The notes below the pieces were generated by a model. The model was not told where the DNA came from, did not search any database, and saw nothing but the letters and a program-made list of their open reading frames with translations. A stretch of DNA of 64,000 nt from an uncultured Acidobacteriota bacterium (GTDB lineage Bacteria > Acidobacteriota > UBA6911). The stretch covers positions 9,893 to 73,892 of the forward strand of contig CAVRAD010000013.1 in the NCBI GenBank assembly GCA_963718845.1, given 5' to 3'. The translations under genes and the position numbers were made by a program. Below, in pieces: positions 242 to 61,008 of the stretch (its first letter is position 1; the number at the start of each line of letters is the position of its first letter).

Positions 242-335
242 AATATGTTTTTGGCGTGCGAGCCTGCCTGCCAAACAAAGATCGTGAACCATGCGGGCTA
301 AAAATGCGAAGGATCCAATATTCAAGGGGAAAACC

Positions 336-3991: not shown

Positions 3992-4110
3992 TTGATTAAT
4001 GAGGAAGGTGCGCGTGAAGAGCAGCGCTTGCTTGCGTCGTTCCTATGATCCATTGTATAAAACGATAGCGTGTGGGGGGGCTTCAAACCTCAGTCAGAAG
4101 AAACGGAATA

Positions 4111-5112
4111 ATGCAGACAGACAGTTCAAACGGGAGTGTGCTTGTCACCGGCGGAACAGGCTTCGTAGGGCGAAATCTTGTCGAAGCACTGTTGCAGAGA
4201 GGACACGAAGTTACATGCCTCGTGAGAAACACAAGCGATACCCATGCGCTTCAAAAACTGCATGTGCGCCTCGTAATGGGAGATATGAACGACCGGGATT
4301 CCATCCGGGAAGCCGTGCGCGGAGTTCAAACCGTTTATCATCTGGCCGGACTGATCAAAGCTGCGCGGCGTGAGCACTATGTGCGGGTCAATCAGGCCGG
4401 GACTCGCCTTCTTCTGGAAGTGCTGGCAGAAACAAATCCTGATTTGAGACGATTTGTGCACATGAGCAGTCTGGCTGCCGCGGGTCCCGGCACCGGCAAC
4501 CGGGGGCTGAACGAAGAGGACAAGCCAAATCCAATTTCCTGGTATGGAGAGAGCAAGCTTCTATCTGAACAGGAAGTCCTGCAATTTTCACACGCCTTCC
4601 CTGTCACAATTCTTCGACCCTCGGCGGTGTATGGCCCGTACGACGCAGAAACGCTTCTTGCATTCCGCATGATCAAGCGGGGCTGCCTGTTCACGCCGGG
4701 ACGATTGATCCGTCGATTCAGCCTGATTTACGTTCATGATTTGGCCTCTGTCTGCATCCAGTCAGGCAACTGCGACACGCCTTCAGGATCGATATATTTT
4801 GTCTCCCGCCCGGAAGTCTATACCTGGGAGGACATCGGGCGCGCGATAGCGCAGGCTCTGGGGAAGCACTATCGGCACATCTCATTTCCTCAATGGCTTG
4901 CTGAAGCCATAGGCGGCGCGGGAGACCTCTGGGCGAAAGTCACTGGCCGGCCGGCAACACTGAACAGCCAAAAGGTCCGGGAACTGCTCCAGACATCCTG
5001 GATATGCGATTCATCTAAGGCGTTAGCCGCGCTGGGTTTCAGCCCTGCGACGGACCTGGCCAGCGGGATAAACGAAACAGTTCGTTGGTACCAGAGTCGA
5101 GGATGGCTATAG
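4111..5112 (+). CDS. NAD-dependent epimerase/dehydratase family SDR (candidate ceramide-pathway reductase CerR)
   Basis: Starts at ATG 4111. Rossmann motif VLVTGGTGFVGRNLV and YGESK (YxxxK). The family call is firm; the CerR role is inferred only from the neighbouring FAAL-ACP-Spt genes. Confidence 0.8.
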   Translation: MQTDSSNGSVLVTGGTGFVGRNLVEALLQRGHEVTCLVRNTSDTHALQKLHVRLVMGDMNDRDSIREAVRGVQTVYHLAGLIKAARREHYVRVNQAGTRLLLEVLAETNPDLRRFVHMSSLAAAGPGTGNRGLNEEDKPNPISWYGESKLLSEQEVLQFSHAFPVTILRPSAVYGPYDAETLLAFRMIKRGCLFTPGRLIRRFSLIYVHDLASVCIQSGNCDTPSGSIYFVSRPEVYTWEDIGRAIAQALGKHYRHISFPQWLAEAIGGAGDLWAKVTGRPATLNSQKVRELLQTSWICDSSKALAALGFSPATDLASGINETVRWYQSRGWL

Positions 5113-8662: not shown

Positions 8663-9804
8663 TATATGCGGTAGCGCTTATAAATCTCAGCGCCGAAGAG
8701 CCGCATGCTTCGATTGATCAGGTCGTTGTTTTCCAGTGTCCAGGAAAACTCGCAGCTTTGATATCCCGCGGCCACGCCGCGGCGGAAAGATTCGTAATAA
8801 AGCGCGGCGCCGAGACCGCCCCAGTTCTGCACCTTCTTTGCGATTCCCAGAGCCAGCACGCGGACCTGCCGGATATGCCGGCCATAATAGATCAGCTTGG
8901 GAAGACCAAACGGCAGAAGCCTTCCATTGATCTTTATCAGCGCCTGGTTGAAATCGGGCAGAGCTAACGAGAAGGCGACCGGCTCCCCGTTTTTTTCCGC
9001 GATCAGGACCACGCGCGGATCCACGATCGTTTTCAGATCTTTGGCCATGTGCCCGAATTCGGCGTCCGTCATGGGCACAAATCCCCAGTTAGTGCTCCAA
9101 GCGTCGTTATAGATTCTTTTGAGAACTTCAACTTCATCCCAAAATTTTTTCATGTCGATGGTACGAATCCGTATTCCTTCATCCTTTAAAACCATCTCGC
9201 CCACTCGAATGATTTTGGGATTCAACCCTTTTTCGGTCAGCAACCACCAGGCATAGAGGTCCATCGCTTTGTCAAACCCGGCTTTTTCAATCAACTCGGG
9301 ATAATAGCGCGGATTGTGAGGCATCATGAGGCAGGGGCAGGAATCAAATCCTTCAATGAGGGTCCCGACGGTTTCATTGGTCGAGTAATTCATCGGCCCG
9401 CGCAATTGATGCATGCCACGATCCCGTGCCCACCGGGCGGCACGATCAAGCAGCGCCGAGGCAACGTCCTGGTCGGGAATCGATTCGAAGAAGCCGAAAA
9501 AGGCAGTGTTTTCGTTGTGGTAGCGATTGTGATTGTTGTTCAGGATGGCCGCGATGCGACCGACAACCTCGCCCTGCCGCACGGCAATAAAAAAATCCGC
9601 GCAGGAGTGATCGAAAAAGGGATTCTTGGTTTTATCGAGCACCTTCTGCATGTCGACGATCAGAGGCGGGACCCAAAAAGGATCCTCGCGATAAACCTTC
9701 CACGGAAGCCGGATAAACTGCCGCAAGGTTCTGGCATCTGTCACAGGGACTATGTCTGGTCGGTCCAAATTTCCCACTCCTCGACCTTGGCTTAATCGCT
9801 TCAC
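8587..9804 (-). CDS. GNAT-fold ~400-aa acyltransferase (candidate bacterial ceramide synthase)
   Basis: Motifs LPWKVYREDPFWVPPLIVD, NPFFDH, GFFGFFES and RGPMNYSTNE. It converges on spt, and the ORF ends overlap by 76 nt. The ceramide synthase role is inference. Confidence 0.6.
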   Translation of the reverse strand: MKRLSQGRGVGNLDRPDIVPVTDARTLRQFIRLPWKVYREDPFWVPPLIVDMQKVLDKTKNPFFDHSCADFFIAVRQGEVVGRIAAILNNNHNRYHNENTAFFGFFESIPDQDVASALLDRAARWARDRGMHQLRGPMNYSTNETVGTLIEGFDSCPCLMMPHNPRYYPELIEKAGFDKAMDLYAWWLLTEKGLNPKIIRVGEMVLKDEGIRIRTIDMKKFWDEVEVLKRIYNDAWSTNWGFVPMTDAEFGHMAKDLKTIVDPRVVLIAEKNGEPVAFSLALPDFNQALIKINGRLLPFGLPKLIYYGRHIRQVRVLALGIAKKVQNWGGLGAALYYESFRRGVAAGYQSCEFSWTLENNDLINRSMRLFGAEIYKRYRIYQKALPTFSSSSASTSTAVRISSSV

Positions 9805-9935
9805 TTGCAGGCCAAGTATATATCAAGTCGAAGCGTCCCCTCTCTCCAAGAATGCGGCAACCGCCGAACCATGATATGATGCCCGCCGTCCATTGCCCCC
9901 CGTTCGGGCGGATCCTATTGGCGCACGGGAGTCCC

Positions 9936-10937
9936 ATGAATCATCCGTTTCGAAGATTGCTGCCGGCAATTCTGGTTATCCTGTCTGTGGTTTTATTTGG
10001 CATCTTGGCTTATACGCTCGTCGAGAAATGGACGTTTCTGGAAGCCATTTATATGATCACTACGACGCTTTTTGCCGTCGGATTCCAGGAAGTGCACCCT
10101 CTTTCGCCAGCCGGCAGAATTTTCACCATGTTCATCATTGTCGGCGGTGTCGGCAGCGCCATCTATGCTGCGGGCCAGGCGGTGGAGATTATCGTTGAAG
10201 GTGAGATGACCGGATATCGAAAGAGGAAGAGGATGGACAAAATAATCAGGGAAATGAAAGGCCACCACATCATCTGCGGATTCGGCAGAGTGGGCCACCA
10301 GGTAGCGCAAACGTTTGAAGCATCCCACGTCCCTTTCGTGGTAATCGACAGCAAAAAGGAAACCCTGGAAGAACTGGAAGCCAAGGGTTTCGCCGGCATC
10401 CTCGGGGATGCTACCAACGACAGCATTTTGCTGGCAGCGGGAATTCTGCACGCCAAAGGTCTTGTGGCTTGCTCGGATTCGGACGTAGCCAACGTCTATG
10501 TAACGCTGTCCGCGCGCGTCTTGAATCCGAGCCTCAACATCGTGGCCAGAGCCGGCCTGCACGATACCGAAAAAAAGCTGATTATGGCAGGTGCGAACAG
10601 GGTTATTTCGCCCTATTTCATATCAGGCACCCGCATGGCAGCGCTGGCAACACGGCCTGTGGCCAGTGACTTTCTCGATCTCGTCACTCATGGCGGGCAG
10701 GTGGATTTCAGCCTGTTCGAAATCACCATCCCCAAAGGCTCACCGCTGATTGGCAAAAGTGTCCGGGATGCAGACATCACAAACATATCCGGCGCCTTGG
10801 TTCTGGCCATGCGAAAAGCCGACGGCGCCTTCGAAATGCAGCCTAAAGCACTATCAAAGATCGAAAAAGGTGATGTGCTGATCGTGCTGGGAACTCAAGA
10901 GCAATTCGAAGCGCTGGAAAAGATAGTGGAACTGTAA
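9936..10937 (+). CDS. 2-TM potassium-channel-like protein with RCK (TrkA-N/TrkA-C) domains
   Basis: Starts at ATG 9936. TM1, pore loop ITTTLFAVGFQEV and TM2 are followed by HIICGFGRVGHQVA (NAD-binding-like RCK) and a C-terminal TrkA-C-like domain. Confidence 0.8.
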   Translation: MNHPFRRLLPAILVILSVVLFGILAYTLVEKWTFLEAIYMITTTLFAVGFQEVHPLSPAGRIFTMFIIVGGVGSAIYAAGQAVEIIVEGEMTGYRKRKRMDKIIREMKGHHIICGFGRVGHQVAQTFEASHVPFVVIDSKKETLEELEAKGFAGILGDATNDSILLAAGILHAKGLVACSDSDVANVYVTLSARVLNPSLNIVARAGLHDTEKKLIMAGANRVISPYFISGTRMAALATRPVASDFLDLVTHGGQVDFSLFEITIPKGSPLIGKSVRDADITNISGALVLAMRKADGAFEMQPKALSKIEKGDVLIVLGTQEQFEALEKIVEL

Positions 10938-12643: not shown

Positions 12644-14719
12644 ATGGGAACACCGGGATTTGCAGGTAAGATACTTCTTATCAATCTGACAACCAGACAA
12701 ATCAGTGCATTAGATTCTGCTAAATATGAAGCATACGGCGGCGGGCACGGAACAGGCACTGCCCTCTTCTGGGACCTCTGCGTGGCTCCGGGCGGCTGGG
12801 ACCTTCAAGATGCCTTCGATCCGAGAAACATTGTAGCATTGATGACGGGGCCACTGGCCGGCACAGGACTCGCATTTGCAGGAAGAACCAGCGTCTCCGG
12901 CCTGGCTGCGCAGACCTGGCCGATCAATTGGTTCGGCCACAGCAATTTCGGCGGCAGTTTCGCACCCGCGCTCAAGCTTGCCGGATGGGACGGTGTGGTA
13001 GTCCAGGGAAAATCGGAATCACCCGCCTATATCAACATCGTTGACGACAATATCACGATTGAGGATGCCGGCCCCTTGTGGGGACTCAACGTTTGGGAAA
13101 CCCAGGAAGAAATCTGGAAAATGGAGAGCACAAAGGCGCCCGTTCGATACGGCTCCGAGTGGCAGAATCTGGGAAACAAATATTCCACACAGCGCCCCTC
13201 CATCGTGACTATTGGCCCGGCTGGTGAAAACAAATCCCGTATCGCCTCCCTCGTTCATGCCGGAGGATCCGGCGCCGGCCAGGGGGGATTCGGCGGCGTT
13301 TTCGGATCCAAAAACCTGAAAGCCATCGCGGTCGTCGGCACCGGCAGCATCAAGATAGCCAATCCCAAAGCAGTGCTGGAAGCGAGGGAGTGGTTTGAGG
13401 CCACATTCCCCATGAGCGGTCAGCGCGGCCCCGGCAGGGATATAAAGCCGGGAGTTTCCTGCTGCATGGGCTGCAACCGCGGATGCCACAGCAGGAGCCA
13501 GATTCAGGGCGTGGATTCGGACAGCTGCACCGAAATGGTTTGGTATAGTCTTCCTTCTCCTCCTTACAAACGCACGCCGACATCGGACATGTGGAAAGCA
13601 AGCGACGCGGTCCAGAAGCTCGGCTTGAATGCTTCCGACCTCTGCTTCATGGGGGCCGCGAGTTTCCCGGCACTGCCGGACACTGAGATAGGGTCGATAT
13701 GCCCAGCGAACACCGGCGCCGGGTGGTACATCAAGAGACTGTATGACATGGGTGTCATCGGTCCGGGAAAAAAGATAGACACCCATCCCCTGCCGATGGA
13801 TCAGTATGAAAAAGTTGAATTCGCCGAAATATTTGCGCTGGCAATCGCCAAGCGCATCGGGATAGGAGATTTGCTCGCCGACGGGATCGTCCGCTTTGCC
13901 GAAAAAATAGGAAGAATCAGCGACCTGGACAGCATCCTGCGCTTGCCGGCATGGGGATACATGGATCACTGGACCATGCCGACGGTGGAGTGGGCGTATG
14001 GCAACCTGATGGATTCCAGAGACATCAACAACCATGACATGCAGCTTGGCCCCACCAAGCTGATGTCTTGCGAGCAATATGTCAAATTGCTGGCGTCCGC
14101 AAGTCCTCCCTATAGCGACGACCCCTTCATGTTCGATTACAGCTGGCAGGGTGAACAGGCATACAAAACCGGCATCTACTCCGACCACAAAGCCAAGTTC
14201 GTCGCCTGGCACCAGCATTATGCAACATACTATAAGGAATCGGCACTCTTTTGCGATTGGGCAATGGGCAACTATTTCAATCCGTCCAATCCCGACGGAA
14301 AGGGAGCAACACCGGAAGCGGAACCCCGTTTCCTCAACGCCGTCACAGGAAAGAATCAAACTTTTCTGGATGGCATCGAGATCGGCCGCAGAGCCTGGAA
14401 TCTGAAGAGGGCTATCTTCGTACTGCAGGGCAGGACCCGGGAAAACGAAAAGTTTTCAGGGTATATGTACAAACGGGGCGCATCCATGGCCAACTTCGGG
14501 ACTACATTGCCGGTCTACGACGGTTCCAAGTGGGACTGGGCTGACTGCCGGGAGCTGTATCTTGACGACAAGGGCGTCGAACAATGGAAGACCGCCTTCT
14601 ATCAGATTGAAGGCTGGGATTCCAAAACAGGCTATCCCAAGAGAAAAACGCTGGAAGATCTCGGCATGAAACATGTCGCAGACGTGCTCCAGTCGAATAG
14701 CAAGCTTGGACAGGCATAA
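12644..14719 (+). CDS. Aldehyde:ferredoxin oxidoreductase family (W/Mo pterin) enzyme
   Basis: AGGGAGAG RBS. AOR-type N-terminus GFAGKILLINLTTRQI and YGGGHGTGTALFWD, with cluster motif CCMGCNRGC. 691 aa. Confidence 0.9.
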   Translation: MGTPGFAGKILLINLTTRQISALDSAKYEAYGGGHGTGTALFWDLCVAPGGWDLQDAFDPRNIVALMTGPLAGTGLAFAGRTSVSGLAAQTWPINWFGHSNFGGSFAPALKLAGWDGVVVQGKSESPAYINIVDDNITIEDAGPLWGLNVWETQEEIWKMESTKAPVRYGSEWQNLGNKYSTQRPSIVTIGPAGENKSRIASLVHAGGSGAGQGGFGGVFGSKNLKAIAVVGTGSIKIANPKAVLEAREWFEATFPMSGQRGPGRDIKPGVSCCMGCNRGCHSRSQIQGVDSDSCTEMVWYSLPSPPYKRTPTSDMWKASDAVQKLGLNASDLCFMGAASFPALPDTEIGSICPANTGAGWYIKRLYDMGVIGPGKKIDTHPLPMDQYEKVEFAEIFALAIAKRIGIGDLLADGIVRFAEKIGRISDLDSILRLPAWGYMDHWTMPTVEWAYGNLMDSRDINNHDMQLGPTKLMSCEQYVKLLASASPPYSDDPFMFDYSWQGEQAYKTGIYSDHKAKFVAWHQHYATYYKESALFCDWAMGNYFNPSNPDGKGATPEAEPRFLNAVTGKNQTFLDGIEIGRRAWNLKRAIFVLQGRTRENEKFSGYMYKRGASMANFGTTLPVYDGSKWDWADCRELYLDDKGVEQWKTAFYQIEGWDSKTGYPKRKTLEDLGMKHVADVLQSNSKLGQA

Positions 14720-25456: not shown

Positions 25457-25621
25457 GGAAGAATCGTACCACGCGGATTTCAGATTCCTGATTCCTGATT
25501 TTACGGATCCGGCAAACTTCTGGTATATTGTGGGCGCAAGCTCTGAAAGAAACATTCGTCTTATCACCATGGCAGCCAAGGAGTCGCCCACCGTCTTATG
25601 GCAGGCAATCAAAATGTAGTT

Positions 25622-27289
25622 ATGTATAGCGACTGCTTTAAATTAAGCGAACCGCCATTTTCGCTGACGCCGGATCCGCGCTTTCTGTTTATGAGTGAGC
25701 GGCACCGGGAGGGCTTGGCTCATCTATTCTACGGCGTCCAACAACCCGGAGGTTTTGTTCAATTAACAGGCGACATTGGATCCGGCAAAACGACTCTCTG
25801 CCGGTGTCTGATCAAGCAGCTTCCGCCCGGAACCGACATCGCGTTGATCCTGAATCCCCGTCTGACGGTCATCGAGCTACTGGCCACCGTCTGCGACGAA
25901 CTGGGTATTTCCTACCCGGTGGAAGCCGCGAGCAACAAGGTCCTGATCGACGCGCTGAATCAACGATTGCTGGAATCGCACGCCAAGAGCAGGCGGACTG
26001 TTCTTATCATCGACGAAGCACAAAACCTGAACGAGGATGTGCTGGAGCAGATCCGGCTATTGACGAATCTTGAAACGTCCAAGGAAAAGCTGCTCCAGAT
26101 AATTCTGATCGGGCAACCGGAGCTGCTCTCGCTTCTCAAGCGAAAGAACCTTCGGCAGCTCGCGCAGCGCATCACGGCGCGATACCACCTGCTCTCCCTG
26201 TCCAGGAGCGAGACGTATGCCTATATCCAGCACCGTTTGTTGGTCGCAGGCAGGAAAGACCCTCTTTTCACCCGGTGGGCGATGCATTGCGTCTATCGTC
26301 GCTCCCGGGGGATACCTCGCGTTATCAACATCATTTGCGACCGGGCCTTGCTCGGGGCCTATGCACTGGATGCCCAGCGCGTCAGCGCCGGCATCGTGCG
26401 CAAAGCCGGCCGGGAAACGAAAGGATCAATTTCTTGGCTCAGGAGGGTTCGCTTTGCCTGGGTTGCCGGAGCCTTGGCGCTCATGGCATTGATCGTGGCG
26501 GCCGCGATATATTTTGCGCCTGTAAGTCTATCCGAACTCCGCCAGAAGACAGCAGATTTTGGGAAACAGGGCAATCCACAATCCGCCAACCAATCCGAAC
26601 AGGCTCCCGCAATACCGGGGGAATATGCCGCCGGCTCTCCAGTCACGGATCGCCGCAAGGCCCGGCTCGATGTGCTTCTGGCCGGAGCTCCTGCGAGCGG
26701 CAAAAGCGGTTTCAGCTACGCCAACCTATATGACCGATGGGGACTCAAGCTCGCTGCCAATGAATCCAATACCGGTTGCAGCGCCGCCCGCGCCCGGGGA
26801 TATGATTGCCTGCAGCAGACAGGAAATTGGCTCAAGCTGCGCCGATATGATTTGCCGGCTGTTCTAGAGATTGTGCTGCCCAGCGGGAAGCGGCGCCAGA
26901 CAACGGTCGTCGAGCTAAAAAATGAAACGGCAACTCTTGCCATCAACAATCGGGAATACACATTCGCTCTGTCTGAAATCAACGGAGTGTGGGACGGATC
27001 CTTCACTGTTCTGTGGAAACCCCCTTTTCCCTTGCGCCCGCTTTCGATCGGCGACAGCGGAAAAGAAGTGCTTTGGATCCGGCATGCACTCGACACGATG
27101 GAAGGGAAAGCACAAAATCCGGCTGATTCGGAATTGTTCGACGAAGACCTCAGGCAGCGCATCCTGGCATTTCAGCGCAGCCAATCCCTAATTCAGGACG
27201 GACTGGTAGGCAGCGAGACGCTTGTGCGGATGACCGTTGCCCTTCAGGGAGTGAACGCTCCATCCCTATCTCGTCGCGCTCGACACTAG
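25622..27289 (+). CDS. ExeA/GspA-family AAA ATPase with C-terminal peptidoglycan-binding domain
   Basis: Starts at ATG 25622. Motifs FSLTPDPRFLF, Walker A GDIGSGKTT and LIIDEAQNL, a TM segment, and a C-terminal PG-binding-like LRQRILAFQRSQSLIQDGLVGSETL. Confidence 0.8.
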   Translation: MYSDCFKLSEPPFSLTPDPRFLFMSERHREGLAHLFYGVQQPGGFVQLTGDIGSGKTTLCRCLIKQLPPGTDIALILNPRLTVIELLATVCDELGISYPVEAASNKVLIDALNQRLLESHAKSRRTVLIIDEAQNLNEDVLEQIRLLTNLETSKEKLLQIILIGQPELLSLLKRKNLRQLAQRITARYHLLSLSRSETYAYIQHRLLVAGRKDPLFTRWAMHCVYRRSRGIPRVINIICDRALLGAYALDAQRVSAGIVRKAGRETKGSISWLRRVRFAWVAGALALMALIVAAAIYFAPVSLSELRQKTADFGKQGNPQSANQSEQAPAIPGEYAAGSPVTDRRKARLDVLLAGAPASGKSGFSYANLYDRWGLKLAANESNTGCSAARARGYDCLQQTGNWLKLRRYDLPAVLEIVLPSGKRRQTTVVELKNETATLAINNREYTFALSEINGVWDGSFTVLWKPPFPLRPLSIGDSGKEVLWIRHALDTMEGKAQNPADSELFDEDLRQRILAFQRSQSLIQDGLVGSETLVRMTVALQGVNAPSLSRRARH

Positions 27290-27302
27290 AGAGGAAGATG
27301 CT

Positions 27303-28082
27303 ATGTCGTATATCCTCGACGCATTGAAAAAAGCCGAACGGGAACGGGATATCAAGCAGGTGCCGACCCTCATGGCCGCGCATCTGCCCGGGATCAAGCA
27401 CTCGAAGCGGCCCTGGGTCATTCTCGGAGCGCTGGCGATTTGTGCGGGCGCGGCGATCTGGCTCCTGCTGCTTTTGCAGAAAACGATGAATGCGCCGGAG
27501 CCCTCTCGAACGGCCGGCGAATACAGTCCGACCCCGAAGGAACTTGAATTATCGCCGTCCGGAGCAACAGCCTCTTCGGCAATGCCGGCCAAACCGGAAA
27601 TCCCAACTGAAAAAGCAGCCGGACCGGAGACAGTTGCTCCGCGCCCGATTGTCCCGACCGGTCCCCGTAATTCCCCTGCCGCAAATGCCATCGATAGCGA
27701 ACGCCTCCAGCAGATGGCCGAATGGATGGCTGCGGCAGCCCGGCGGGGAGAGGATGATTCTGAAGATAGCCCTCCGCCTGAAATGATGGATAGAATGCAG
27801 CCACGCGTTCGCACACCCGGACGCACGACGAAAGCAGAAATGCCCGCTGCTGAAGAACCCAAGGACAAGCCTGCAACCTTGAAGGAAGTTTTAAATGAAA
27901 TGACCCTGAGTATTCTGCTGTATGATGAAGACAAAGCAGGAAGAATGGTTTTCATCAACGGCAGAAAATATGTTGAAGGGGATCTTGTCGAAAGTGCCTA
28001 CCTTCTGGAAAACATCACCTTGGAGGGTGCCGTCCTTAGCTATCGGGGAGAGCGCGCACTGCTGCGGCCAAAAGCAAAATAA
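27303..28082 (+). CDS. gspB: GspB-like general secretion pathway protein B
   Basis: Hallmark N-terminus MSYILDALKKAERER, one TM helix, and C-terminal FINGRKYVEGD. It immediately follows the exeA-like gene. Confidence 0.7.
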   Translation: MSYILDALKKAERERDIKQVPTLMAAHLPGIKHSKRPWVILGALAICAGAAIWLLLLLQKTMNAPEPSRTAGEYSPTPKELELSPSGATASSAMPAKPEIPTEKAAGPETVAPRPIVPTGPRNSPAANAIDSERLQQMAEWMAAAARRGEDDSEDSPPPEMMDRMQPRVRTPGRTTKAEMPAAEEPKDKPATLKEVLNEMTLSILLYDEDKAGRMVFINGRKYVEGDLVESAYLLENITLEGAVLSYRGERALLRPKAK

Positions 28083-28102
28083 CAAATCTACCGAGGATAT
28101 GT

Positions 28103-29542
28103 ATGACAATCACCCGCGCCAAAAGAGCTCCAGCACTATTGACCACCGTTCTTGATCCTAGAGGGCAACCGACGATCGTTGTTCGGCCGCAGCCGCTCGC
28201 TCCTCGTCTCGACACAATCCAGGGGAAAACCATATACCTGGTGGATGTGGGATTTGGCGGGGGGTGGGAATTTCTGGAAGAAACCGTCGCATGGTTCTCC
28301 CGCAACATGCCCAGCGTTAAAACCACGCTGCTGCATAAAAAGGGCATCATGTTCGTCGACGAACCCGAGATGTGGGCGGAGATGAGTCAAAAGGCAGATG
28401 CCATCATCTTCGGAGTCGGTGGCTGAGACGGATGCACGGCGAGTGTCGCCGCACATTGCAGAGAGATTGAAACCAAGCATGGAATCCCCACCGTACCGCT
28501 GGCCAGCGCGCGCTTCGCCGAGTACGCGGCGCAGGACTCTCAGAATCACGGCATGAAATTGCGTTTTTCATTCCCTCCCTATCCTCTGGTGGGAAGGCCG
28601 CGTGAAGTGCTTCGCATGTATGTCGAAGGGAACGATCCCGTATCAGGCAAACCGCTGATGCCGCAGATCATCGATGGATTCACCCGGCCTCTCACCGAAG
28701 AAGAAAAGAAGCCTAAAGCCTCGCGGCGCAAAGCGAGACCCCGGCTGATGCAGCCGGACACGGAAGAGAATCTTCATAAATTATTTCTCGAAAATGGATG
28801 GACGGATGGAGCCCCCATCGTCCTGCCCACCGAAGAGCGCGTGGCGCACATGTTGACGGGCACTGCAGCAGATCCAAACGAAGTTGTCGGCCAGATGACG
28901 ATCACCATCCACCAGGAAAAGCTGGAATACACGGTTGAAAGAGTTGCGGTCAATGCCGTTATGGCGGGCGCCGGCCCCGAGCATCTGCCTGTCATCCTCG
29001 CGCTTGCTGCCAGCGAAGAAGGATCCATGCCAAGTTCAACCACGTCGTTCGGCAGGATGGCAGTGGTTAACGGGCCGATTCGCCAGGAAATAGGAATGAA
29101 CTCCGGCCTGGGAGCGCTGAGCCCCTTTAACCATGCCAACACCGTGATCGGTCGAGCCTGGACTCTGATGACCATAAACCTGGGAGATGCGCGGCTCGGC
29201 GAGACGTTCATGGGATCGACCGGCAACACCATGAACTACAACAATATGATGATCGCCGAAAACGAAGAACGAAACATCTGGGAACCGTTCCACGTGAGGA
29301 TGGGTTTCAAGAAAGGCGAAAGCGTCGTCAGCCTCTTTCAGGGCTGGAGCGCGATCAATAGCATGGGCGCCGCCGGCTGTTGCCGTCCCGCACAAGAAGA
29401 GATGTTGATCATCCTGCAGGCTTTTCCATGTCTGCAGGGAGCTCTCACGCTTGTCATGGATCCGCTCGTTGCCAAGCACTTGAAGGAGCAGGGATTCGAC
29501 GATCCCCAAGCAGCTCTCCAAATATCTGTCGGAGAATTTTAA
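28103..29542 (+). CDS. Candidate selenoprotein: UGSC-like UxxC module fused to an unassigned ~330-aa domain (TGA 28424-28426 read as Sec)
   Basis: ORFs 28103-28426 and 28553-29542 share a frame with no other stop between them. The TGA lies in IIFGVGG-U-DGC-TASVAAHCREIETKHGIPTV, and a hairpin follows it 11 nt downstream. Confidence 0.65.
28431..28457 (+). other. Candidate bacterial SECIS hairpin
   Basis: The upper stem cggcga/tcgccg (28437-28451) has apical loop GUG and starts 11 nt after the UGA. A lower 4-bp stem is separated from it by a 2x2 internal loop. Confidence 0.5.
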
Positions 29543-29543
29543 G

Positions 29544-29885
29544 ATGACGGCCGGGCAGTTCTGGGGATCCGATGTAGTGTATTCGCTGGTGGAACCCAAC
29601 GCGCGCAATGGCATTGAACCGTATGCATCCTGGTTGAAGCTGCCTAAGGACGCGAGGATCGCACCCTATACTGTTCCAGAAAAAATCAACGTGATCGTTG
29701 TCGGCGGCGAAACCCAGGCGCTCTGGCTTACAACGGACATGTGGCACACCAAGACGGTTTCCATCGATAGGTGGAGGCCGAAAACCGGCGCTTACAGGGA
29801 AGATGAACAGGCTGCCCGCCGCCGCCAAGCCCGTCAGAAGCGGCATGCGGCAGCGCTAAATGCTTCGGGCTACGATTTGAAATAA
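29544..29885 (+). CDS. Hypothetical protein, probably the displaced C-terminus of the preceding gene
   Basis: It starts 1 nt after the previous stop. Removing one C from the run at 29504-29507 joins the frames as GFDDPKQLSKYLSENFKMTAGQFWG. Confidence 0.4.
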   Translation: MTAGQFWGSDVVYSLVEPNARNGIEPYASWLKLPKDARIAPYTVPEKINVIVVGGETQALWLTTDMWHTKTVSIDRWRPKTGAYREDEQAARRRQARQKRHAAALNASGYDLK

Positions 29886-40728: not shown

Positions 40729-43060
40729 TCATTCAGATATGCCGAGAATGGATCTCTCTATCAACGTCTTCGCAATATCTACTTTGTATTGATTCATAGT
40801 GAGCGGCAGCACCGCCGCCAGCGCCGCCCGTGCTGCCTCAGCCGCGCTTTTTTCATTGATGGATTTCCCTTTTAGAACGAGCTCTGCTTCTCTGGCCCTC
40901 ACGGGCGCCGGGGCAACGGCCCCCAGAGCGATGCGGGCATCGGAACAGACGCCATTTTTTGCGGTAATGATCGAAGCTACGCTCACAACGGCGAAATCGA
41001 TTGGCTTCCTCAACGTAAACTTCAAGTAGTGCTGCCGCGCGCCTCTCGGAGGCTTGGGAATCCGAACCTCCTTAATCAGCTCATCCGGTTCAAGAACGGT
41101 AGAGCACGATGCGGTAGCAGCGAAGAAAGCTTGGGCAGGAAGGGTTCGCTTGGTGGTCACAATGCTTGCATCCAGGACCACCAACGCTATCGCAATATCC
41201 GACGGGGCGACTGCAAGACATCCGCAACTCACACAGCGGAACGCTTCCTTCTGGATTTCGCTGTCGCTGAGTCCAGCCACATCCTCGACAAAAATGCTAT
41301 GGACGCGCTCGGCCGCCGGTATCTCCCGGACTTGTGTCCGGGGGATTTCATCAAAATGAGACTCAGGATATTGCGCTTGCGCGCTTTCGTTTGCAGACTC
41401 CGGTTTTGCCGTGCCGAGAAACGCCTCGATTGCACTTACGGCTTCCTTAGCGGAAACCACGGCCTGAATCACCGTAGACGAGCCTTCCACCATGTCCCCG
41501 CCAATAAATACGCTGCCTCCCTGAATAAAAAGCGTATCTTCGGCAGTCTGCCCGATTGCGACAATCACGCTCTCGCCCCGCAAACTCGATGATTCCGCCC
41601 CATCCTCGTATATGGGATTAAATCTGCCATCAGGTCCACGCACGGAAGTGCACTTCCTGGACACTATGCCGACAGCCGCACCATTCGCCGTTTTTATTTC
41701 TCTTATTCCCAGCGATGGATGAATGACGATTCCCTCTTCCTCGGCTTCCAGGATTTCCTGATCGAGAGCCGAGCATCCTGTCTTTCGAAGCAAGGTCTCG
41801 AGTCTCAAGGCATACGACGAGGACCTCACTCGCGCCAGTTCTTCTGGCGGTCCGCGCCGCATCGATTGCGACACTTCCTCCGCCAATCACAATCACTCTT
41901 TTGCCGAGAGATATCTTCTCGCCGAAATTAATCCTCTTGAGATAATCCAGCGCTGAATAAACACCCCGGGCATCTTCACCGGGAACACCCAGCCTCAGAC
42001 TTTTCCAGGTCCCGCCTGCAACGAAAACTGCGTCAGAACCGGTCTTGATACTTGCGGCCAGGCCGCTGTCCATAGTCACTGCGGTTTCAAATTGAATGCC
42101 CATGCTCTTTAGCGCCCGGATCTGCTTTCCTACAACTTCTTTGGGCAGGCGATACGAAGGGATGCTATACCGCAGCATGCCGCCCGGCTCCGGCAGCTTT
42201 TCATATACGGTGACCTGATGGCCGCTTTTTCTGAGATAGTATGCCGCGGCCAGCCCCGCAGGTCCGGAGCCGACAATGGAGACTCTTTTGCCCGATCCGG
42301 TTTGAGGTGGAGCGAAATAATCGACCGCGTGGTCAAGAATATAATCGCCTACGCCGCGTTCGATGCTGTGGATTGCGACGGGCTCGTCATATTCGCTGCG
42401 GTTGCAGTGCGGTTCGCAATACACCGGGCAGACTCTTCCGGTAATGGCCGGGAAGGGGTTGTCGCGCAACAGTGTGCGCGCTGCTTCGGAAATATTATTC
42501 TCGCGAACCAGCCTCAGGTATCCGGGGATATCGACATGCGCCGGACAATGGCTGGCACAGCGTCGGTCGGATGCGGGCGCGGCGCCAAAAATGGAGTGAT
42601 AGCGGTTATCGCCGACAAGCGCGCTGCAGGCTTTACCTCCCTTGCGCAGGCAGACCACGGGCCCGCCGATTTGCTGCGGGTACCGGTAATACCAACAGCG
42701 GACATCCTGCGCCAGGTTCCCTCCGAGCGTAGCCACATTTCTGATATTGGGGTTCGCCACTGAAACCGCCGCTTCGGCAAGAAGCGAGTAATCCTGCCTG
42801 ACCGCCGGTGATTTTACGATATCCGCCAGTTTGGCAAGCGCTCCTATCCTCATACCCCTGCCACTGGCTTTAATGTAGCCAAGATTCGAAATCGTTTTGA
42901 TGTTGATCAACGCTTCCGGATACTCAGGTATGCAATGATCCCTCAACTCGCCGATAAGGTCGGTCCCCCCGGCATTGACCCTGGCCCTCCCGTTGTATTT
43001 TGAAAGCAGCGATGCTGCCTGCTTGAGCGTGCGGACATTGTGGTGTTTGAACGTTTTCAT
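40729..43060 (-). pseudogene. Molybdenum hydroxylase FAD-binding subunit (PaoB/CoxM-like) with nested GltD-like NAD(P)H/FeS module, one frameshift
   Basis: ATG 43060 overlaps the upstream stop. Motifs AGGTDLIGEL and NRYHSIFG are followed by GltD-like CPAHVDIPGYL, CPVYCEPHCNR and IVGSGPAGLAAAYYL. The protein then resumes with CLAVAPSDIAIALVVLDA and the CO_deh_flav_C-like end. Deleting the base at 41772 restores ..DRMPALDQEILEAEEEG. Confidence 0.8.
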
Positions 43061-45327
43061 TATGCGGCTCCTTTCGAGCGGGTTTTGAGCACCCGGTCTG
43101 GAGTCACAGGGTATTGATATAACCATGCCCCGATAGCGTTTGAGGCTGCCATCAGCGTTGCGGAAGGCCCCGGAGATGTAGTAATTTCGGCAACTCCCAC
43201 TGCGTGAAAACGATGGCTTGGGAAAGGCGTTTCGAGCACCACGTTTTCAATGACGGGTAATTCTGCGAATGTCCGCCATTTATAGTCGATCAGGTTGGCG
43301 TTGACAATGTGCCCTTTTCGGCGGTCGAGGATCGTCTCTTCGAAAATAGCACTGTCGATACCTGCAGAACCCCAGCAGGCGTTGAGCTGGCCTTCGAGAC
43401 CCAGCGGATCCATGATTTTGCCGACATCGGTGGCATTGACCACCCGCAATAATCTGAGCTTCCCGGTTTCGACGTCTACTTCAATCTCGACAAAAGACAT
43501 AAAGCAGTTGCACATGGTAAAATCGGATTCAAACCGCCCGTAGCCGAGAAGGGTGCGGTCATTGCCCATCACTCGCCATTTAATTCCCTTGTCCGGCTCC
43601 CCTTTTACAAAGATAACTCCGTCGGCTGTATCGAGTTCTTTGGGATCGGCGCCAAGCTTGGGCGCTGCCAACTCCAGCAGCTTTCTTTTGGCATCTTCCG
43701 CCGCATTGATCACTGCGCTTCCGATAGCATACGTGCCTCTGGAACCTACTGGACCAAATTCGTAAGGAGTAACAAGAGTGTCGGCCGGAACCATTTCAAT
43801 ACGGTCCGGCGGGATCTGAAGAACCTCTGCGGCCATTTTGATGTAATTGGATTTCTGGCCGGTCCCGAATTCCGCTACACAGAGAAAAATCGTTGCGGTA
43901 CCGTTATAGCCGAGCTGCACATACGCTTCCGCGGTATCTTCACCGATATCGGCATTCCCATGAACGGCAACTCCGACACCTCGTCGTTTGGGACCGTCGA
44001 CAGCAGTGGGCGTAAGCCAGCCCTTCCATTTGTCTTTCCAGCCGAAAAGCTGGGCACCTTGATCCATGGCCCTGCTAAAATCAATTCCCCTATTTTCATA
44101 GAACTCGCCATCGCGCCAATAATAGCCTCCGCCCGGTTTGACGAAGTTTTTCTTATACACATCGAAGGGATCAAGCCTGGCTTTTTCCATGGCCAAATAT
44201 AAGGTTGGATTGAAGGCGCACTCCAATTCCTGGCCGCCGAATCCCCTGGTTGAACCGGAAGCATTGCGATTGGTAGCGACAACAATATTCTTAAGATCCC
44301 AGTTGGGACACTGGACCATGATCATCAGTTCACCGGCGCCGACCGCCACCTGACATTGCGTCGTGGAGGAATAATAGCCGGTATCAACGTACCAGGTGCC
44401 CTGGATGGCCGTAATGGTTCCATCCTTTTTCATCCCGACCTTCGCTTGGATGCGGGATCCGATACGGAGGGTGAAGTTCGCCATATGCTCTTCTTTGGTA
44501 AACATGATTTTGACGGGACGCAGCGTGGCCCGCGCCAGGATGATGGCGTAGGCCTGAACTTGCCAGCACATGAATTTGGTCCCGAAGCTTCCGCCGACAT
44601 TATGCCCGATGCTTCGGACTTCCAATCCCCGGTTGAATACGTGGAATAGCGTAACCTTGTCCATGTAGGGCGCCTGACTGGTCCCATAAATCGTAGCCCT
44701 GTTGGGCGGCTCCCAAAATGCGACGACGCCTAAGGCTTCAGCCGGGAGAGCATTGGGCATATTTTCGTATCCGAAAGTGCCTTCTGTGATGATGTCGGCT
44801 TCCGCAAATCCCTTTTCGACATCTCCGCGTACGACACCTTGAAGGCAGTTGGGCCCATAGATAGGTGTGCCGCCGGGAATGATATTGCTTTTGAGCTCTT
44901 CATAAAGAAGCGGAGCGTCCGGCTTAAGAGCGGAATCGATATCGAAGACCGCCGGCAGGATTTCGTATTCCACGTCGATCAGGCTTAAGGCCTCTTCGGC
45001 AATCTGCTCCGAAGTTGCGGCTACGAGAGCAACTGCGTCTCCCACGTACCGGACTTTTTTATCGAGCACGCGCACAATGCGCGGAGTGCCGCCCCTCCAG
45101 TCCGGGATGTCTTCCCATGTAACGACCGCTTTAACGCCCGGCAGCGCTTCCGCTCTGCTCTTGTCTATTTTTCTGATGTTGGCGTGCGCATGGGGACTAC
45201 GCAGTACTCTGCCATAGAGCAGGTTCTGGAATTTCAGATCGTCCATAAATTGAGCGGTGCCACTGACAATACCCGAAGCATCCCGTCGCTGTAGAGGCTT
45301 GCCTATGTATCTATACTCGTTGCTCAT
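43060..45327 (-). CDS. Molybdopterin-binding large subunit, xanthine dehydrogenase/aldehyde oxidase family
   Basis: ATG 45327 lies in an ATGA overlap with the upstream stop and has a GGGGGAGG RBS. The N-terminus is YIGKPLQRRDASGIVSGTAQF. ~755 aa. Confidence 0.9.
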   Translation of the reverse strand: MSNEYRYIGKPLQRRDASGIVSGTAQFMDDLKFQNLLYGRVLRSPHAHANIRKIDKSRAEALPGVKAVVTWEDIPDWRGGTPRIVRVLDKKVRYVGDAVALVAATSEQIAEEALSLIDVEYEILPAVFDIDSALKPDAPLLYEELKSNIIPGGTPIYGPNCLQGVVRGDVEKGFAEADIITEGTFGYENMPNALPAEALGVVAFWEPPNRATIYGTSQAPYMDKVTLFHVFNRGLEVRSIGHNVGGSFGTKFMCWQVQAYAIILARATLRPVKIMFTKEEHMANFTLRIGSRIQAKVGMKKDGTITAIQGTWYVDTGYYSSTTQCQVAVGAGELMIMVQCPNWDLKNIVVATNRNASGSTRGFGGQELECAFNPTLYLAMEKARLDPFDVYKKNFVKPGGGYYWRDGEFYENRGIDFSRAMDQGAQLFGWKDKWKGWLTPTAVDGPKRRGVGVAVHGNADIGEDTAEAYVQLGYNGTATIFLCVAEFGTGQKSNYIKMAAEVLQIPPDRIEMVPADTLVTPYEFGPVGSRGTYAIGSAVINAAEDAKRKLLELAAPKLGADPKELDTADGVIFVKGEPDKGIKWRVMGNDRTLLGYGRFESDFTMCNCFMSFVEIEVDVETGKLRLLRVVNATDVGKIMDPLGLEGQLNACWGSAGIDSAIFEETILDRRKGHIVNANLIDYKWRTFAELPVIENVVLETPFPSHRFHAVGVAEITTSPGPSATLMAASNAIGAWLYQYPVTPDRVLKTRSKGAA

Positions 45328-45833
45328 AAAGCTACCTCCCCCCTCTCTGCGACGGATCGGACAGCCCTCAACACGTGGTAGTGGCTGACGCACCGACAAA
45401 AATTGCCCGAAAGGGCTTCCTTGATTTCCTCCTCCGTAGGATGAGGATTTTCATTGAGAAGGGCCTTAGAAGTCATGATTATTCCGGGAGTGCAAAAGCC
45501 GCATTGAAAAGCGGAGTGCTTGATAAAAGCCTGCTGCAGCGGATCAAGCTCGCCGGTTTTCGGATCTCTCAATCCCTCGATGGTCGTGATGTTTTTGCCA
45601 TCGCATTCAATTGTGAGAATTTTGCAGGAATTGATTGCCTTGCCATCCATAATGACGGTACAAGCGCCGCAGGCTCCTTGGCCGCAGGCGGCCTTGGTAC
45701 CCGTCAACCCCAGAGTTTCTCTCAGCGTGTGGACTAGAGAGTGCGCGGGATCCAACTGTCCCGGCTTTTTCCCCACATCGAGTTCATGCACCTGCCCATT
45801 AACAGTCAAACTGATTGATTTTGTCGTTGCCAT
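45324..45833 (-). CDS. [2Fe-2S]-binding small subunit of molybdenum hydroxylase
   Basis: Motifs CGQGACGACTV and FQCGFCTPG. 169 aa. Confidence 0.9.
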   Translation of the reverse strand: MATTKSISLTVNGQVHELDVGKKPGQLDPAHSLVHTLRETLGLTGTKAACGQGACGACTVIMDGKAINSCKILTIECDGKNITTIEGLRDPKTGELDPLQQAFIKHSAFQCGFCTPGIIMTSKALLNENPHPTEEEIKEALSGNFCRCVSHYHVLRAVRSVAERGEVAL

Positions 45834-55195: not shown

Positions 55196-56566
55196 TTATG
55201 TCAGTAGACGGATGATTTCTCGAGCATCATTCAATTGCTCGAGTCCTCCGACTAGTTGCACGATATTTTCAATCCGCCCCGTATCCAGGCTTTTTGCACA
55301 ATCTCTGAATTTCCTCACACAATCATCGAAAGACATAGGCCGATCGAGACTGCCGAGAGGGTTCTCTACTACCTTCGCAAAAGTCCGGCCATCCTTTGTT
55401 AGTACCGTCACCCGCGTTGGCTCCGGGCCAGGCCTGTGAAGCGTGTTGTCCACTTCCACCCGCATCTTCTGAGTGACTTCCAGGACTTCGCGGTTCTTGA
55501 TGGCGTTTTCCGTAAAATCGTCCAATCCCACACGCCGCCCCACGATTGACGACGCAACGCCCCACGGAATGCTGAACTGGGCATCCACGGGACTTCGCGG
55601 GGATCGCTTCGCATCCAACGGTTGGCAAAGCAAAGAAAAGTGCGCATCGGTGACGGAAAGCACGATTTCCCTTATATCTCCGCTGCGGATATTCTCCTCG
55701 AGGGCCAAAGCTAATCCGGCGTCAATGGCTGGATGAATGCCGCGACAGCACGGATACGGCTTGATTGCGACATTAACGCCTTCGAATCGTTTTCCTATAT
55801 CCGCCGTAAGAATTTCCCGACTGTAATCCCCATGCATGTATTGCTGGTAGAGCCCCCATTCGCCTTCGAAGGAATTCTTTGCGCCGGTAACGCCGGCCTT
55901 CGCCAGCAATGCGGCCGTGATGCCTCCCTTGATGGCAAATCCCGGCCCCAGCCTCTTTGCCAGCGCACCGTCCTTGACACATTGACCGTTGCCTGCGCAC
56001 TGGTGATAGCCGATCCCGATAGCATTGACCATCGTCTCTTCATCCAAACCCATGACTCTGGCAGCTGTCGCAGCCGAACCCATAAAGCCGAACAGCGATG
56101 TCAGATGCCATCCCAGCTCGATCGGGCTCTTGCCGGGAGTTGTAGCCAGTGCCAACCGGCACATCATGTCGACGCCCAGCGCAGTGCTTGTGATCAGCTC
56201 CTTGCCGCTGAGACGCCCATGCGCTTCACCCACAGCGATGACGACGGGTATGGATGCGATACCCGGATGCATGACGGCCGCTTCGTGGACATCGTCAAAA
56301 TCCAGAGAATGCGCCATCGTGGCGTTGGCCTGCGCGGCATTGGGCGCCGGCACTTTCTGTTTGCTGCCGATGATGCTGCTTTCTTCCTTGCCGCCCCACT
56401 CCTTCACAAGCGCGCACACGTGCGTAGCGCCGGGCTGATTGGCGCCCCCCAGCGCGACACCTAGCAGGTCCAGAATCTCTTTCTTGGTTGCGTCCACAAC
56501 ATCGGCGGACAGGTCTTCGTACTTTGTATTTACAAAGTTTTTGGCAAACAAATAAGCAGCATCCAT
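55196..56566 (-). CDS. MmgE/PrpD family protein
   Basis: 456 aa. PrpD-like features are N-terminal FAKNFVNTKYEDL, then HSLDFDD and KPYPCCRGIHPAIDA. Confidence 0.85.
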   Translation of the reverse strand: MDAAYLFAKNFVNTKYEDLSADVVDATKKEILDLLGVALGGANQPGATHVCALVKEWGGKEESSIIGSKQKVPAPNAAQANATMAHSLDFDDVHEAAVMHPGIASIPVVIAVGEAHGRLSGKELITSTALGVDMMCRLALATTPGKSPIELGWHLTSLFGFMGSAATAARVMGLDEETMVNAIGIGYHQCAGNGQCVKDGALAKRLGPGFAIKGGITAALLAKAGVTGAKNSFEGEWGLYQQYMHGDYSREILTADIGKRFEGVNVAIKPYPCCRGIHPAIDAGLALALEENIRSGDIREIVLSVTDAHFSLLCQPLDAKRSPRSPVDAQFSIPWGVASSIVGRRVGLDDFTENAIKNREVLEVTQKMRVEVDNTLHRPGPEPTRVTVLTKDGRTFAKVVENPLGSLDRPMSFDDCVRKFRDCAKSLDTGRIENIVQLVGGLEQLNDAREIIRLLT

Positions 56567-56597
56567 ACTGTAATCTCCGATGATTCCAAATTCCTGA

Positions 56598-56650
56598 TTC
56601 CAGATTCCAGATTCCAGAATAATTCCGAGTCAGGAATCTGGAATCTGGAA
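56598..56650. repeat. Inverted repeat built from gattcca units (18-bp stem) in crotonase-PrpD gap
   Basis: ttccagattccagattcc (56598-56615) pairs with ggaatctggaatctggaa (56633-56650). Confidence 0.8.
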
Positions 56651-56653
56651 TTA

Positions 56654-57532: not shown

Positions 57533-57550
57533 AATGAGACCTCCATTTAG

Positions 57551-58780: not shown

Positions 58781-58789
58781 TTCTCTTCC

Positions 58790-58893
58790 AAGGATCAAAG
58801 GATTAAAGGATTAGAGGATCAAAGGGAAAGAAGTATGAACCACTTCTTCCCTTTACCCCTTTAATCCTCGGATCCTTTAATCCTTTAATCCTT
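58790..58893. repeat. Imperfect ~45-50-nt inverted repeat of aaggatt-type units in OYE-CoA-transferase gap
   Basis: aaggatcaaaggattaaaggattagaggatcaaagggaaagaagt pairs with acttcttccctttacccctttaatcctcggatcctttaatcctttaatcctt. Confidence 0.8.
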
Positions 58894-58895
58894 CT

Positions 58896-60986: not shown

Positions 60987-61008
60987 GCTTACGCCTTTCA
61001 CTTTATAC

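Follow-up and report, generated by a model that had tools for sequence, protein, structure and literature searches.

We describe a gene at positions 28103-29885 (forward strand) of a 64,000-nucleotide stretch of contig CAVRAD010000013.1 (assembly GCA_963718845.1, positions 9,893 to 73,892), which derives from an uncultured Acidobacteriota bacterium of the lineage UBA6911; the whole stretch is called the window in the following. The gene is a mis-annotated long-form member of the UGSC selenoprotein family, and the family itself is already known. We are highly confident of the following combined explanation: the gene encodes one selenoprotein of 593 residues in which a UGA codon is recoded as selenocysteine (Sec), a U-x-x-C centre is followed by a fused C-terminal domain, a second break in the frame is an assembly error, and the protein operates by a redox mechanism of the kind proposed below. 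The gene has been mis-called as two or three open reading frames (ORFs), and reading its TGA as Sec recovers the complete protein. The function of the long-form UGSC protein we only infer.

Reading frame and features of the gene

Translation of the window shows that the TGA at 28424-28426 closes an ORF beginning at 28103 and that the identical frame then stays open to 29542 without a further stop. The codon lies in the context IIFGVGG-[TGA]-DGC-TASVAAHC, which gives a U-x-x-C motif, specifically U-D-G-C, and the frame-repaired product has 593 codons with Sec108 within GVGG-U-DGC. When the TGA is read as Cys, the Pfam family PF24696 (UGSC) matches residues 16-173 across the codon with 69.5 bits, as compared with a cutoff of 25, and covers profile positions 2-158 of 172. 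The original prediction, made from this DNA alone, had placed the TGA within one continuous frame and had recognized a U-x-x-C at the position of the UGSC motif; the translation confirms the former, and the DGC context and the PF24696 match across the TGA confirm the latter. Its description of the module as UGSC-like holds at the Pfam level. It does not extend to the NCBIfam equivalog NF041046 (147 positions, cutoff 125 bits), as the window protein reaches 49.5 bits and six long-form homologs tested against this model reach 37-86 bits, all below the cutoff. The features of the gene are as follows.

28103..29885, forward strand: whole selenoprotein gene, 593 codons and TAA, with one Sec-UGA and one extra C (translation, frame repair, and orthologs with single frames of 588-590 codons)
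28093..28097, forward strand: Shine-Dalgarno sequence GAGGA, 5 nucleotides upstream of ATG 28103 (read from the sequence)
28148..28621, forward strand: UGSC-type Sec module, residues 16-173, predicted parallel alpha/beta (PF24696 at 69.5 bits, AlphaFold2 model of the homolog P0151, hhalign with controls)
28424..28426, forward strand: UGA codon for Sec108, first residue of U-D-G-C (codon census in relatives, Cys column in full-length homologs)
28433..28435, forward strand: TGC codon for Cys111, presumed resolving cysteine of UxxC (Cys at +3 in all TGA and TGC loci, alignment with the second Cys of the selenoprotein B motif CPVC)
28433..28455, forward strand: SECIS-like hairpin, with an upper stem at 28437-28451 (6 base pairs), an apical GUG loop at 28443-28445 and a lower stem of 2 base pairs (folding, covariation)
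28655..29777, forward strand: conserved core of the C-terminal domain, residues ~185-558, of no known family (alignments A1 and A2)
29504..29507, forward strand: CCCC run with one C more than in all orthologs, splitting the gene into ORFs 28553-29542 and 29544-29885
29778..29882, forward strand: Arg/Lys-rich C-terminal tail of 35 residues, clade-specific (shared by the window and its close orthologs, missing from most other clades)

On inspection of the sequence, the ATG at 28553, which is where gene callers restart, has no Shine-Dalgarno sequence upstream that is comparable to the one before ATG 28103. With regard to existing annotation, a 560-aa Cys homolog in RefSeq (WP_358488424.1) is named 'UGSC family (seleno)protein', and the database entries for the window's own clade are truncated 'hypothetical protein' records that start after the Sec codon.

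The selenocysteine codon in related genes

At least 583 relatives were confirmed by a scan of one genome per GTDB species. The codon census comprised the best 80 of these together with three ortholog loci fetched by protein identity, and 82 loci allowed the codon at the Sec position to be mapped. It is TGA in 72 loci, TGC (Cys) in eight and a leucine codon in two, while TAA and TAG occur in none. A Cys three residues after the Sec position is present in all TGA and TGC loci of the census. The three fetched ortholog loci, one of them from an actinobacterial metagenome-assembled genome, consist of single frames of 588-590 codons with one in-frame stop at the same codon. The relatives in the census belong to at least nine phylum-level lineages. 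TGA loci are found in Acidobacteriota, Actinomycetota, Chloroflexota, Bacillota, Desulfobacterota/Thermodesulfobacteriota, Rokubacteria, Binatia, Latescibacterota, and Proteobacteria, and TGC loci are mostly found in Alphaproteobacteria such as Rhizobium puerariae, Neorhizobium, and Bradyrhizobium. Cultured organisms with a Cys form include Rhizobium, Neorhizobium, and Pseudonocardia.

Full-length homologs of 545-570 aa without any stop were recovered by an exhaustive search of 50%-identity cluster representatives, in which the homologs P0036, P0151, and P0188 stood in for the window protein, as they did in structure prediction. Some of these proteins carry CSTC, CPGC or CGSC at the aligned motif columns, and the full-length homologs that bear CxxC are P0129, P0135, P0142, P0151, and P0208. 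The original prediction had proposed Cys orthologues at this codon as a check on its selenoprotein reading, and both the TGC codons in 8 of the 82 loci and the CxxC motifs of full-length homologs provide them.

The region after the TGA also appears to be translated. Over the 42 codons from the TGA to ATG 28553, compared with 11 orthologs, synonymous changes equal or exceed non-synonymous changes in most comparisons (e.g., 17 versus 7 and 19 versus 10), the exceptions being the two most distant orthologs; the 40 codons upstream of the TGA show the same synonymous pattern. Within the window, TGA is the terminator of 7 of 26 Pfam-confirmed genes, and thus the codon is not reassigned genome-wide and its recoding is site-specific. 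The window was also scanned for other genes with an in-frame TGA, and no credible candidate was obtained. Taken together, the alternation of TGA with TGC, the coding constraint past the TGA and the covarying hairpin described below mean that selenocysteine at the UGA of 28424 is well supported by comparison of sequences, in line with the original prediction.

Long-form paralogs were observed at two or three per genome in OY970253.1 (L011, L031, and L044), the single-amplified genome JBHPCX (L033, L036, and L067), and CAWEJX010000012.1 (L037 and L059). Paralogs within one genome usually all contain TGA; one genome pairs a TGA copy with a Leu copy that is devoid of the redox motif. TGA orthologs are located on complete chromosomes such as OY970253.1 and CAWENG010000004.1.

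A SECIS-like hairpin downstream of the UGA

A hairpin of the sequence CGGCGA-GUG-UCGCCG is located at 28437-28451. Its first stem base lies 10 nucleotides past the UGA, and a lower stem adds two further pairs (28433/28434 with 28454/28455). The consensus for the bacterial Sec insertion sequence (bSECIS) comprises a loop of 3-9 nucleotides, a stem of 4-16 base pairs, a G in the first two loop positions, a spacing of 16-37 nucleotides between UGA and loop, and a minimum free energy (MFE) of at most -7.5 kcal/mol (PMC13188914). The window hairpin agrees with each of these: its loop has 3 nucleotides, of which the first is G and the next U, its upper stem has 6 base pairs, the spacing is 16 nucleotides, and the folding energy of the local 27-nucleotide segment is -9.2 kcal/mol.

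Comparison among loci extends this observation beyond the window. Between nucleotides +10 and +36, the mean folding energy is -11.3 kcal/mol in 73 TGA sequences versus -5.6 kcal/mol in 10 non-TGA sequences (Mann-Whitney p = 1.2e-4), and relative to synonymous shuffles, TGA loci have a mean z of -1.39 and non-TGA loci one of -0.28. The apical loop, at nucleotides 20-24, reads GGUC in 30 sequences and GUG, GUC or GUA in 25. GGUC is the apical loop of the Escherichia coli fdhF SECIS as well. The two hairpin classes, namely the GGUC-loop class and that of the window, were analysed as gapless alignments. The GGUC class has 84.7% of its cells paired, and each of its six stem pairs has changed on both sides. 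For the window's class the paired share is 96.6%, and two of seven stem pairs are compensatory, one of these being purely synonymous (GCG>GCC together with GTC>GTG). For both classes, none of 500 shuffles scores as high in covariation or attains the percentage paired of the real alignment, and the pairing breaks down when the register is slid, although the sequences of a class are related by descent and these counts are therefore not strict probabilities.

Two general approaches gave negative results. An Rfam scan of the window at gathering thresholds returned no match, and the MFE of the whole 63 nucleotides after the TGA was no different from that of synonymous shuffles; only the local in-register test is informative. 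The original prediction of a SECIS-like hairpin of suitable position and shape is thus sustained by the bSECIS features and by covariation, with evidence that is comparative and does not come from the window alone.

Probable relationship of the Sec module to GrdB and PrdB

The structure of the protein was approached with AlphaFold2, for which the input was an alignment of 69 sequences with the full-length Cys homolog P0151 at its head. The resulting model of P0151 (predicted local distance difference test, pLDDT, 91.7; predicted template modelling score, pTM, 0.90) suggests that the two domains are packed in a defined orientation. In this model, the N-terminal domain is a parallel beta-alpha-beta fold in which Cys122, the equivalent of Sec, occupies the loop that connects strand 114-120 with helix 125-138, and the first helical turn contains the second Cys.

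Reads of PrdB/GrdB in the GOS (Global Ocean Sampling) metagenomes have the same layout around Sec as the window. Pairwise BLASTP of the window motif with PrdB/GrdB gave a weak alignment (E = 0.083). With hhalign, the N-terminal domain aligned with 18 Cys-containing 'selenoprotein B family' proteins at 89.2% (E = 2.2e-6), and the use of an 83-sequence alignment of the N-terminal domain gave 94.7% (E = 6e-8) over 106 columns, with the Sec/Cys and resolving-Cys columns superposed; reversed and column-shuffled controls gave at most 0.5%. Because of these values of 89-95% with controls at or below 0.5%, a remote homology between the Sec module and the Sec-bearing part of GrdB/PrdB is probable. The window protein is nonetheless not a member of the GrdB/PrdB family, since PF07355 (GRDB) does not match it at E <= 1 and no pyruvoyl-subunit gene (PrdA/GrdE) lies near the window gene. 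Likewise, no such cluster recurs in the 84 loci compared.

The fused C-terminal domain

The comparisons show a permanent fusion of the Sec module to a C-terminal domain whose fold family is unknown. The conserved core of this domain comprises ~375 residues (~185-558), and the domain extends to ~410 aa with the tail (residues ~185-593). The Arg/Lys-rich tail comes after the conserved SIDRWR end of the domain. The original prediction had described a fusion to a region of ~330 aa that could not be assigned; the region remains unassignable, and its length is corrected to ~410 aa by the frame repair. The fusion of UGSC module and C-terminal domain is conserved across phyla, which also answers the question of whether orthologues carry the downstream domain fused or as a neighbouring gene. 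The domain is widely distributed: it accounts for ~4,000 clusters at the 50% identity level and occurs in at least 583 GTDB species.

The motifs of the domain are WTDG.P..LPTE, VNAVMAGA, VNGP, AN..IGRA, GN, ENEE, and SID.WR; those that are invariant or near-invariant across alignments are WTD..P...PTE, VMAG, NGP, AN..GR, GN, ENE, and D.WR. Polar residues (Asp, Thr, Asn, Arg, Glu, Trp) are kept at invariant or near-invariant positions. In window numbering, these include Thr243, Asn346, Arg351, and Glu386-Glu388, which do not vary in alignment A1, and Asp235 and Trp393, which at least 90% of sequences share. The domain has no match in Pfam or NCBIfam, and a Pfam search over 70 diverse members at E <= 1 found no recurrent family besides UGSC. 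A sequence-profile search of the PDB returned only insignificant matches to the FtsZ GTP-loop, and these were to the N-terminal domain. Foldseek searches of the PDB found only generic alpha/beta domains for the full-length model (query-normalised template modelling (TM) score of at most 0.19), and for the C-terminal domain modelled alone (pLDDT 87.4) the best hit had E = 0.019, a probability of 0.28, and a TM of 0.21. Class I fumarases and 'Toblerone' amidohydrolases were rejected as a fold match on these values.

Other arrangements of the C-terminal domain were also observed. A tandem duplicate of the domain occurs without a redox domain in P0195 and P0209, and a fusion to an AhpC/TSA-Redoxin domain occurs in P0265, which belongs to a 90%-identity cluster of 177 sequences. 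We do not claim standalone C-terminal domain proteins, as most of the candidates are Sec forms that have been truncated or stem from very short contigs. The idea of a pyruvoyl group in this domain was dropped: a Ser-rich loop is near-invariant among 13 sequences, but its Ser is not near-invariant in the 69-sequence set.

Proposed mechanism and its weighing

In D-proline reductase, PrdA holds the substrate on its pyruvoyl group, and the alpha-carbon of this substrate is attacked by the Sec of PrdB; a U151C variant is inactive (PMC11229817). We propose that the window protein may operate in a comparable manner. The hairpin at 28437-28451, with its GU-containing apical loop 16 nucleotides from the UGA, would recruit SelB carrying Sec-tRNA(Sec). 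In the resulting protein, Sec108 and Cys111 would constitute a U-x-x-C redox centre, situated according to the model in the loop and the first helical turn after a beta-strand. By analogy with PrdA/PrdB, the fused C-terminal domain might present substrate to Sec108. The C-terminal domain would bind or activate a small substrate, which the selenolate of Sec108 would then attack or reduce; Cys111 would resolve the adduct to give a selenenylsulfide, and a thioredoxin or thioredoxin-reductase-type system would re-reduce the centre.

The genomic context lends this mechanism partial support. Genes for low-Mr thioredoxin-reductase-like flavoproteins (Pyr_redox_2, HCASCDG) adjoin the gene in 8 of 84 loci, which represent six lineages and all belong to the U/C-STC clade; one example is the flavoprotein gene of Rhizobium puerariae at L065:4629-5597. 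The presence of a peroxiredoxin-like domain on the same C-terminal domain in another subfamily is also counted in favour of the mechanism.

Several observations weigh against the combined explanation. The window hairpin on its own is not significant when compared with synonymous-codon shuffles (z = -0.6 to -0.8, p = 0.22). The window has no tRNA, no Rfam match, and no SelA, SelB or SelD among its 30 largest ORFs, which says little for a stretch of 64 kb. The frame break could be a real inactivating mutation in the source genome. The window gene and the loci of its clade have no thioredoxin-reductase neighbour, their recurrent neighbour being a short-chain dehydrogenase/reductase (SDR), and neighbourhoods are otherwise heterogeneous. 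The C-terminal domain has no conserved Cys in the alignments and no identifiable cofactor site. Finally, several other full-length members carry T, M, G, S, H or L at the motif in place of Cys or Sec and keep the C-terminal domain motifs, so that the activity of this domain cannot universally depend on the redox centre. This last point is the main counter-evidence.

It bears most directly on a serious, if less probable, alternative, in which the Sec/Cys centre is not catalytic for the C-terminal domain. The centre would then be a regulatory or protective redox switch, or the N-terminal domain would be mainly structural, and the reaction of the C-terminal domain would be non-redox. Such a role is consistent with the members that have lost Cys/Sec and kept all C-terminal domain motifs, with the tandem duplicates that exist without a redox domain, and with the character of the C-terminal domain invariants, which are acid/base and Arg-type and not redox residues. 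Sec is costly, however, and it is nearly always found in catalytic redox or nucleophilic positions. Moreover, an independent fusion has joined the C-terminal domain to a peroxiredoxin-like domain, 8 loci have thioredoxin-reductase genes next to the gene, and the homologous PrdB module is catalytic (PMC11229817).

A broader proposal can also be made, which we advance as speculation and consider rather unlikely. Long-form UGSC proteins might represent a widespread class of selenoenzymes that realize the principle of PrdA/PrdB or GrdE/GrdB in a single chain. The orphan-fold C-terminal domain would bind or activate a small substrate of the organic-acid or amino-acid type, and the GrdB/PrdB-like Sec module would perform reductive bond cleavage or reduction on it. 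A dedicated thioredoxin-reductase-type flavoprotein would restore the selenol, and the class would belong to soil and sediment Acidobacteriota, Actinomycetota, Chloroflexota, and Proteobacteria, not to Stickland-fermenting clostridia.

The frame break at 29504-29507

The second interruption of the gene had been suspected in the original prediction to be due to one spurious C, and this guess was correct: when one C is removed from the CCCC run at 29504-29507, ORF 29544-29885 is joined to the preceding frame and the ortholog sequence DDPKQLSKYLSENFKMTAGQ is recreated exactly. The best 120 database homologs are mostly 440-480 aa in length and cover ~70% of the read-through product. Those inspected begin just after the TGA codon and continue past the window's frame break (...GFDDPKQLSKYLSENFKMTAGQFWGSDV...). 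We consider a homopolymer assembly error to be the most likely cause of the break.

Alternatively, the gene may be intact in relatives and a pseudogene here, with the extra C as a genuine frameshift by which the C-terminal domain would lose its last ~125 residues. The frame break is present in the given sequence, and the database protein P0010, which is identical to the window, is truncated likewise. We nevertheless judge this to be improbable, as the downstream frame is open and ortholog-like up to the normal stop without further lesions, and an insertion of one base in a homopolymer is a typical assembly error. In addition, other genes split by indels occur in related assemblies, and the members of the P0010 cluster are fragments of many lengths.

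Examples of such split genes were observed at locus L001, where a DUF169 gene (9509-10349, reverse strand) and an SDR gene (3412-4199, forward strand) are each halved by a frameshift and not by an in-frame TGA. Indel errors therefore occur in this assembly type, which fits the CCCC break as an artefact. The split DUF169 gene was considered as a second selenoprotein in a relative and was rejected because of its frameshift. In the 690-aa ortholog P0060, an apparent fusion of the C-terminal domain with a nitroreductase goes out of frame after ...VVVGE and looks like a frameshift artefact that joins neighbouring genes.

Readings of the TGA without selenocysteine

Readthrough of the TGA without selenium, either by near-cognate insertion of Cys, Trp or Arg or under a variant genetic code, would be compatible with the fact that Sec machinery was not observed within the 64 kb. 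We regard it as very improbable. TGA ends 7 of the 26 well-supported genes in the window, TGA loci span many unrelated phyla that use the standard code, and the codon alternates specifically with Cys. Moreover, TGA is accompanied by a SECIS-type hairpin whose loop contains GU or GGUC, and this hairpin is weaker in loci that have TGC or Leu instead.

Hardly credible, finally, is the view of the public annotations that there are two or three separate genes, with the TGA as the true stop of a 107-aa UGSC fragment and independent starts at ATG 28553 and ATG 29544: gene callers split every ortholog likewise and a GGAGA lies 9 nucleotides upstream of ATG 29544, but a Pfam domain extends across the TGA, coding constraint acts on the 42 codons from there to ATG 28553, which has no Shine-Dalgarno sequence, the Cys-codon homologs are single uninterrupted proteins, the stop at this position is always TGA, and all orthologs cross the 29542/29544 junction in one frame.

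Neighbouring genes and other observations

Directly upstream of the selenoprotein gene (25598-28082, forward strand), the window encodes an AAA_22 ATPase with a C-terminal peptidoglycan-binding domain (ExeA-like) and a T2SSB (GspB-like) protein. These AAA_22/PG_binding and T2SSB-like genes have no obvious link to the selenoprotein, and the remaining neighbours of the window gene are ORFs without a Pfam match. An SDR neighbour is found in 18 loci overall; rarer neighbours are AMP-binding, TctC, SBP_bac_5, PQQ-dehydrogenase, and glycyl-radical enzyme genes. The glycyl-radical enzymes (PFL-like) adjoin the gene at four loci (L002:1708-7545, L033:5026-7431, L053:18-2790, and L059:59-2612), of which three also have a radical-SAM activase and two are Leu-containing variants. 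At locus L084 (1338-6942) of Phreatobacter stygius, we observed an orphan 313-aa gene of the GRDB family (selenoprotein B-like, Cys form) without a PrdA-like partner. It adjoins a LysR regulator and a divergent SDR/AMP-binding/TctC cluster, which are the kinds of neighbours seen around long-form UGSC genes.

Elsewhere, the window contains further enzyme genes at 12644-14719 (forward strand) and at 40729-41886, 43060-45399, and 55196-62223 (reverse strand). These encode an aldehyde:ferredoxin oxidoreductase, two subunits of the molybdopterin-hydroxylase type, and a cluster of MmgE/PrdD, two family III CoA-transferases and an enzyme with Oxidored_FMN and Pyr_redox_2 domains (dienoyl-CoA-reductase-like). 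One ORF at 291-1856 (forward strand) combines Memo-like and AMMECR1 domains.

Comparison with known systems

The present analysis adds three aspects: the probable relation of the Sec module to the catalytic module of GrdB/PrdB, the coupling of this module to a very common domain that has neither a Pfam model nor a solved structure, and the thioredoxin-reductase-like genes as recurrent neighbours. With these three leads combined, it is reasonable to take up the family in structural and biochemical work.

UGSC selenoproteins have been on record since 2007-2008 through the work of Zhang and Gladyshev, with function unknown, and UGSC was a major selenoprotein family in the GOS metagenomes, with 255 Sec and 21 Cys sequences (PMC1976440, PMC2398784). 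The family is among the most abundant selenoprotein families in aquatic metagenomes, and its function has remained unknown since its first listing (PMC2398784, PMC13188914). The 2008 paper also recorded a 'UGSC/Unknown_1' fusion in GOS metagenomes and suggested a Trx-like fold (PMC2398784). The window protein resembles this family in its PF24696 match over the Sec codon, its UxxC motif with Cys homologs, its unknown function, and the existence of a fusion on record. It differs in that its motif is U-D-G-C and not U-G-S-C, and in its length of 593 aa with a large extra domain. In contrast to the Trx-like fold of the literature, model and homology point here to a parallel alpha/beta module of the GrdB/PrdB kind. 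The part of the sequence dataset of 2008 that was searched does not contain the motifs of the C-terminal domain, which may or may not correspond to 'Unknown_1'.

The redoxin fusions (e.g., MEC7789067.1, a 'redoxin domain-containing protein' from Chloroflexota) have the same orphan C-terminal domain behind an N-terminal thiol-redox domain. In these proteins, however, the N-terminal domain has an AhpC/TSA-Redoxin fold with a CPTT motif, and there is no UGSC/GrdB-like module and no Sec.

With GrdB/PrdB, the window protein shares a layout that runs from a beta-strand through U-x-x-C and a helix to LE..GIPTV, G[MV]P.RF, and P[YF]PL[VG]G. The Sec of PrdB acts on a substrate that is held by another polypeptide (PMC11229817). 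The grd operons encode a thioredoxin system, which the thioredoxin-reductase-like neighbours of long-form UGSC genes would parallel. The GRDB-specific region N-terminal to Sec is absent from the window protein. The partner of its Sec module is a fused domain that is unrelated to the selenoprotein B sequences tested, among which PrdA and GrdE were not included. The organisms differ as well, as GrdB/PrdB belong to amino-acid-fermenting clostridia, whereas long-form UGSC proteins are found in soil and sediment Acidobacteriota, Actinomycetota, Chloroflexota, and Proteobacteria.

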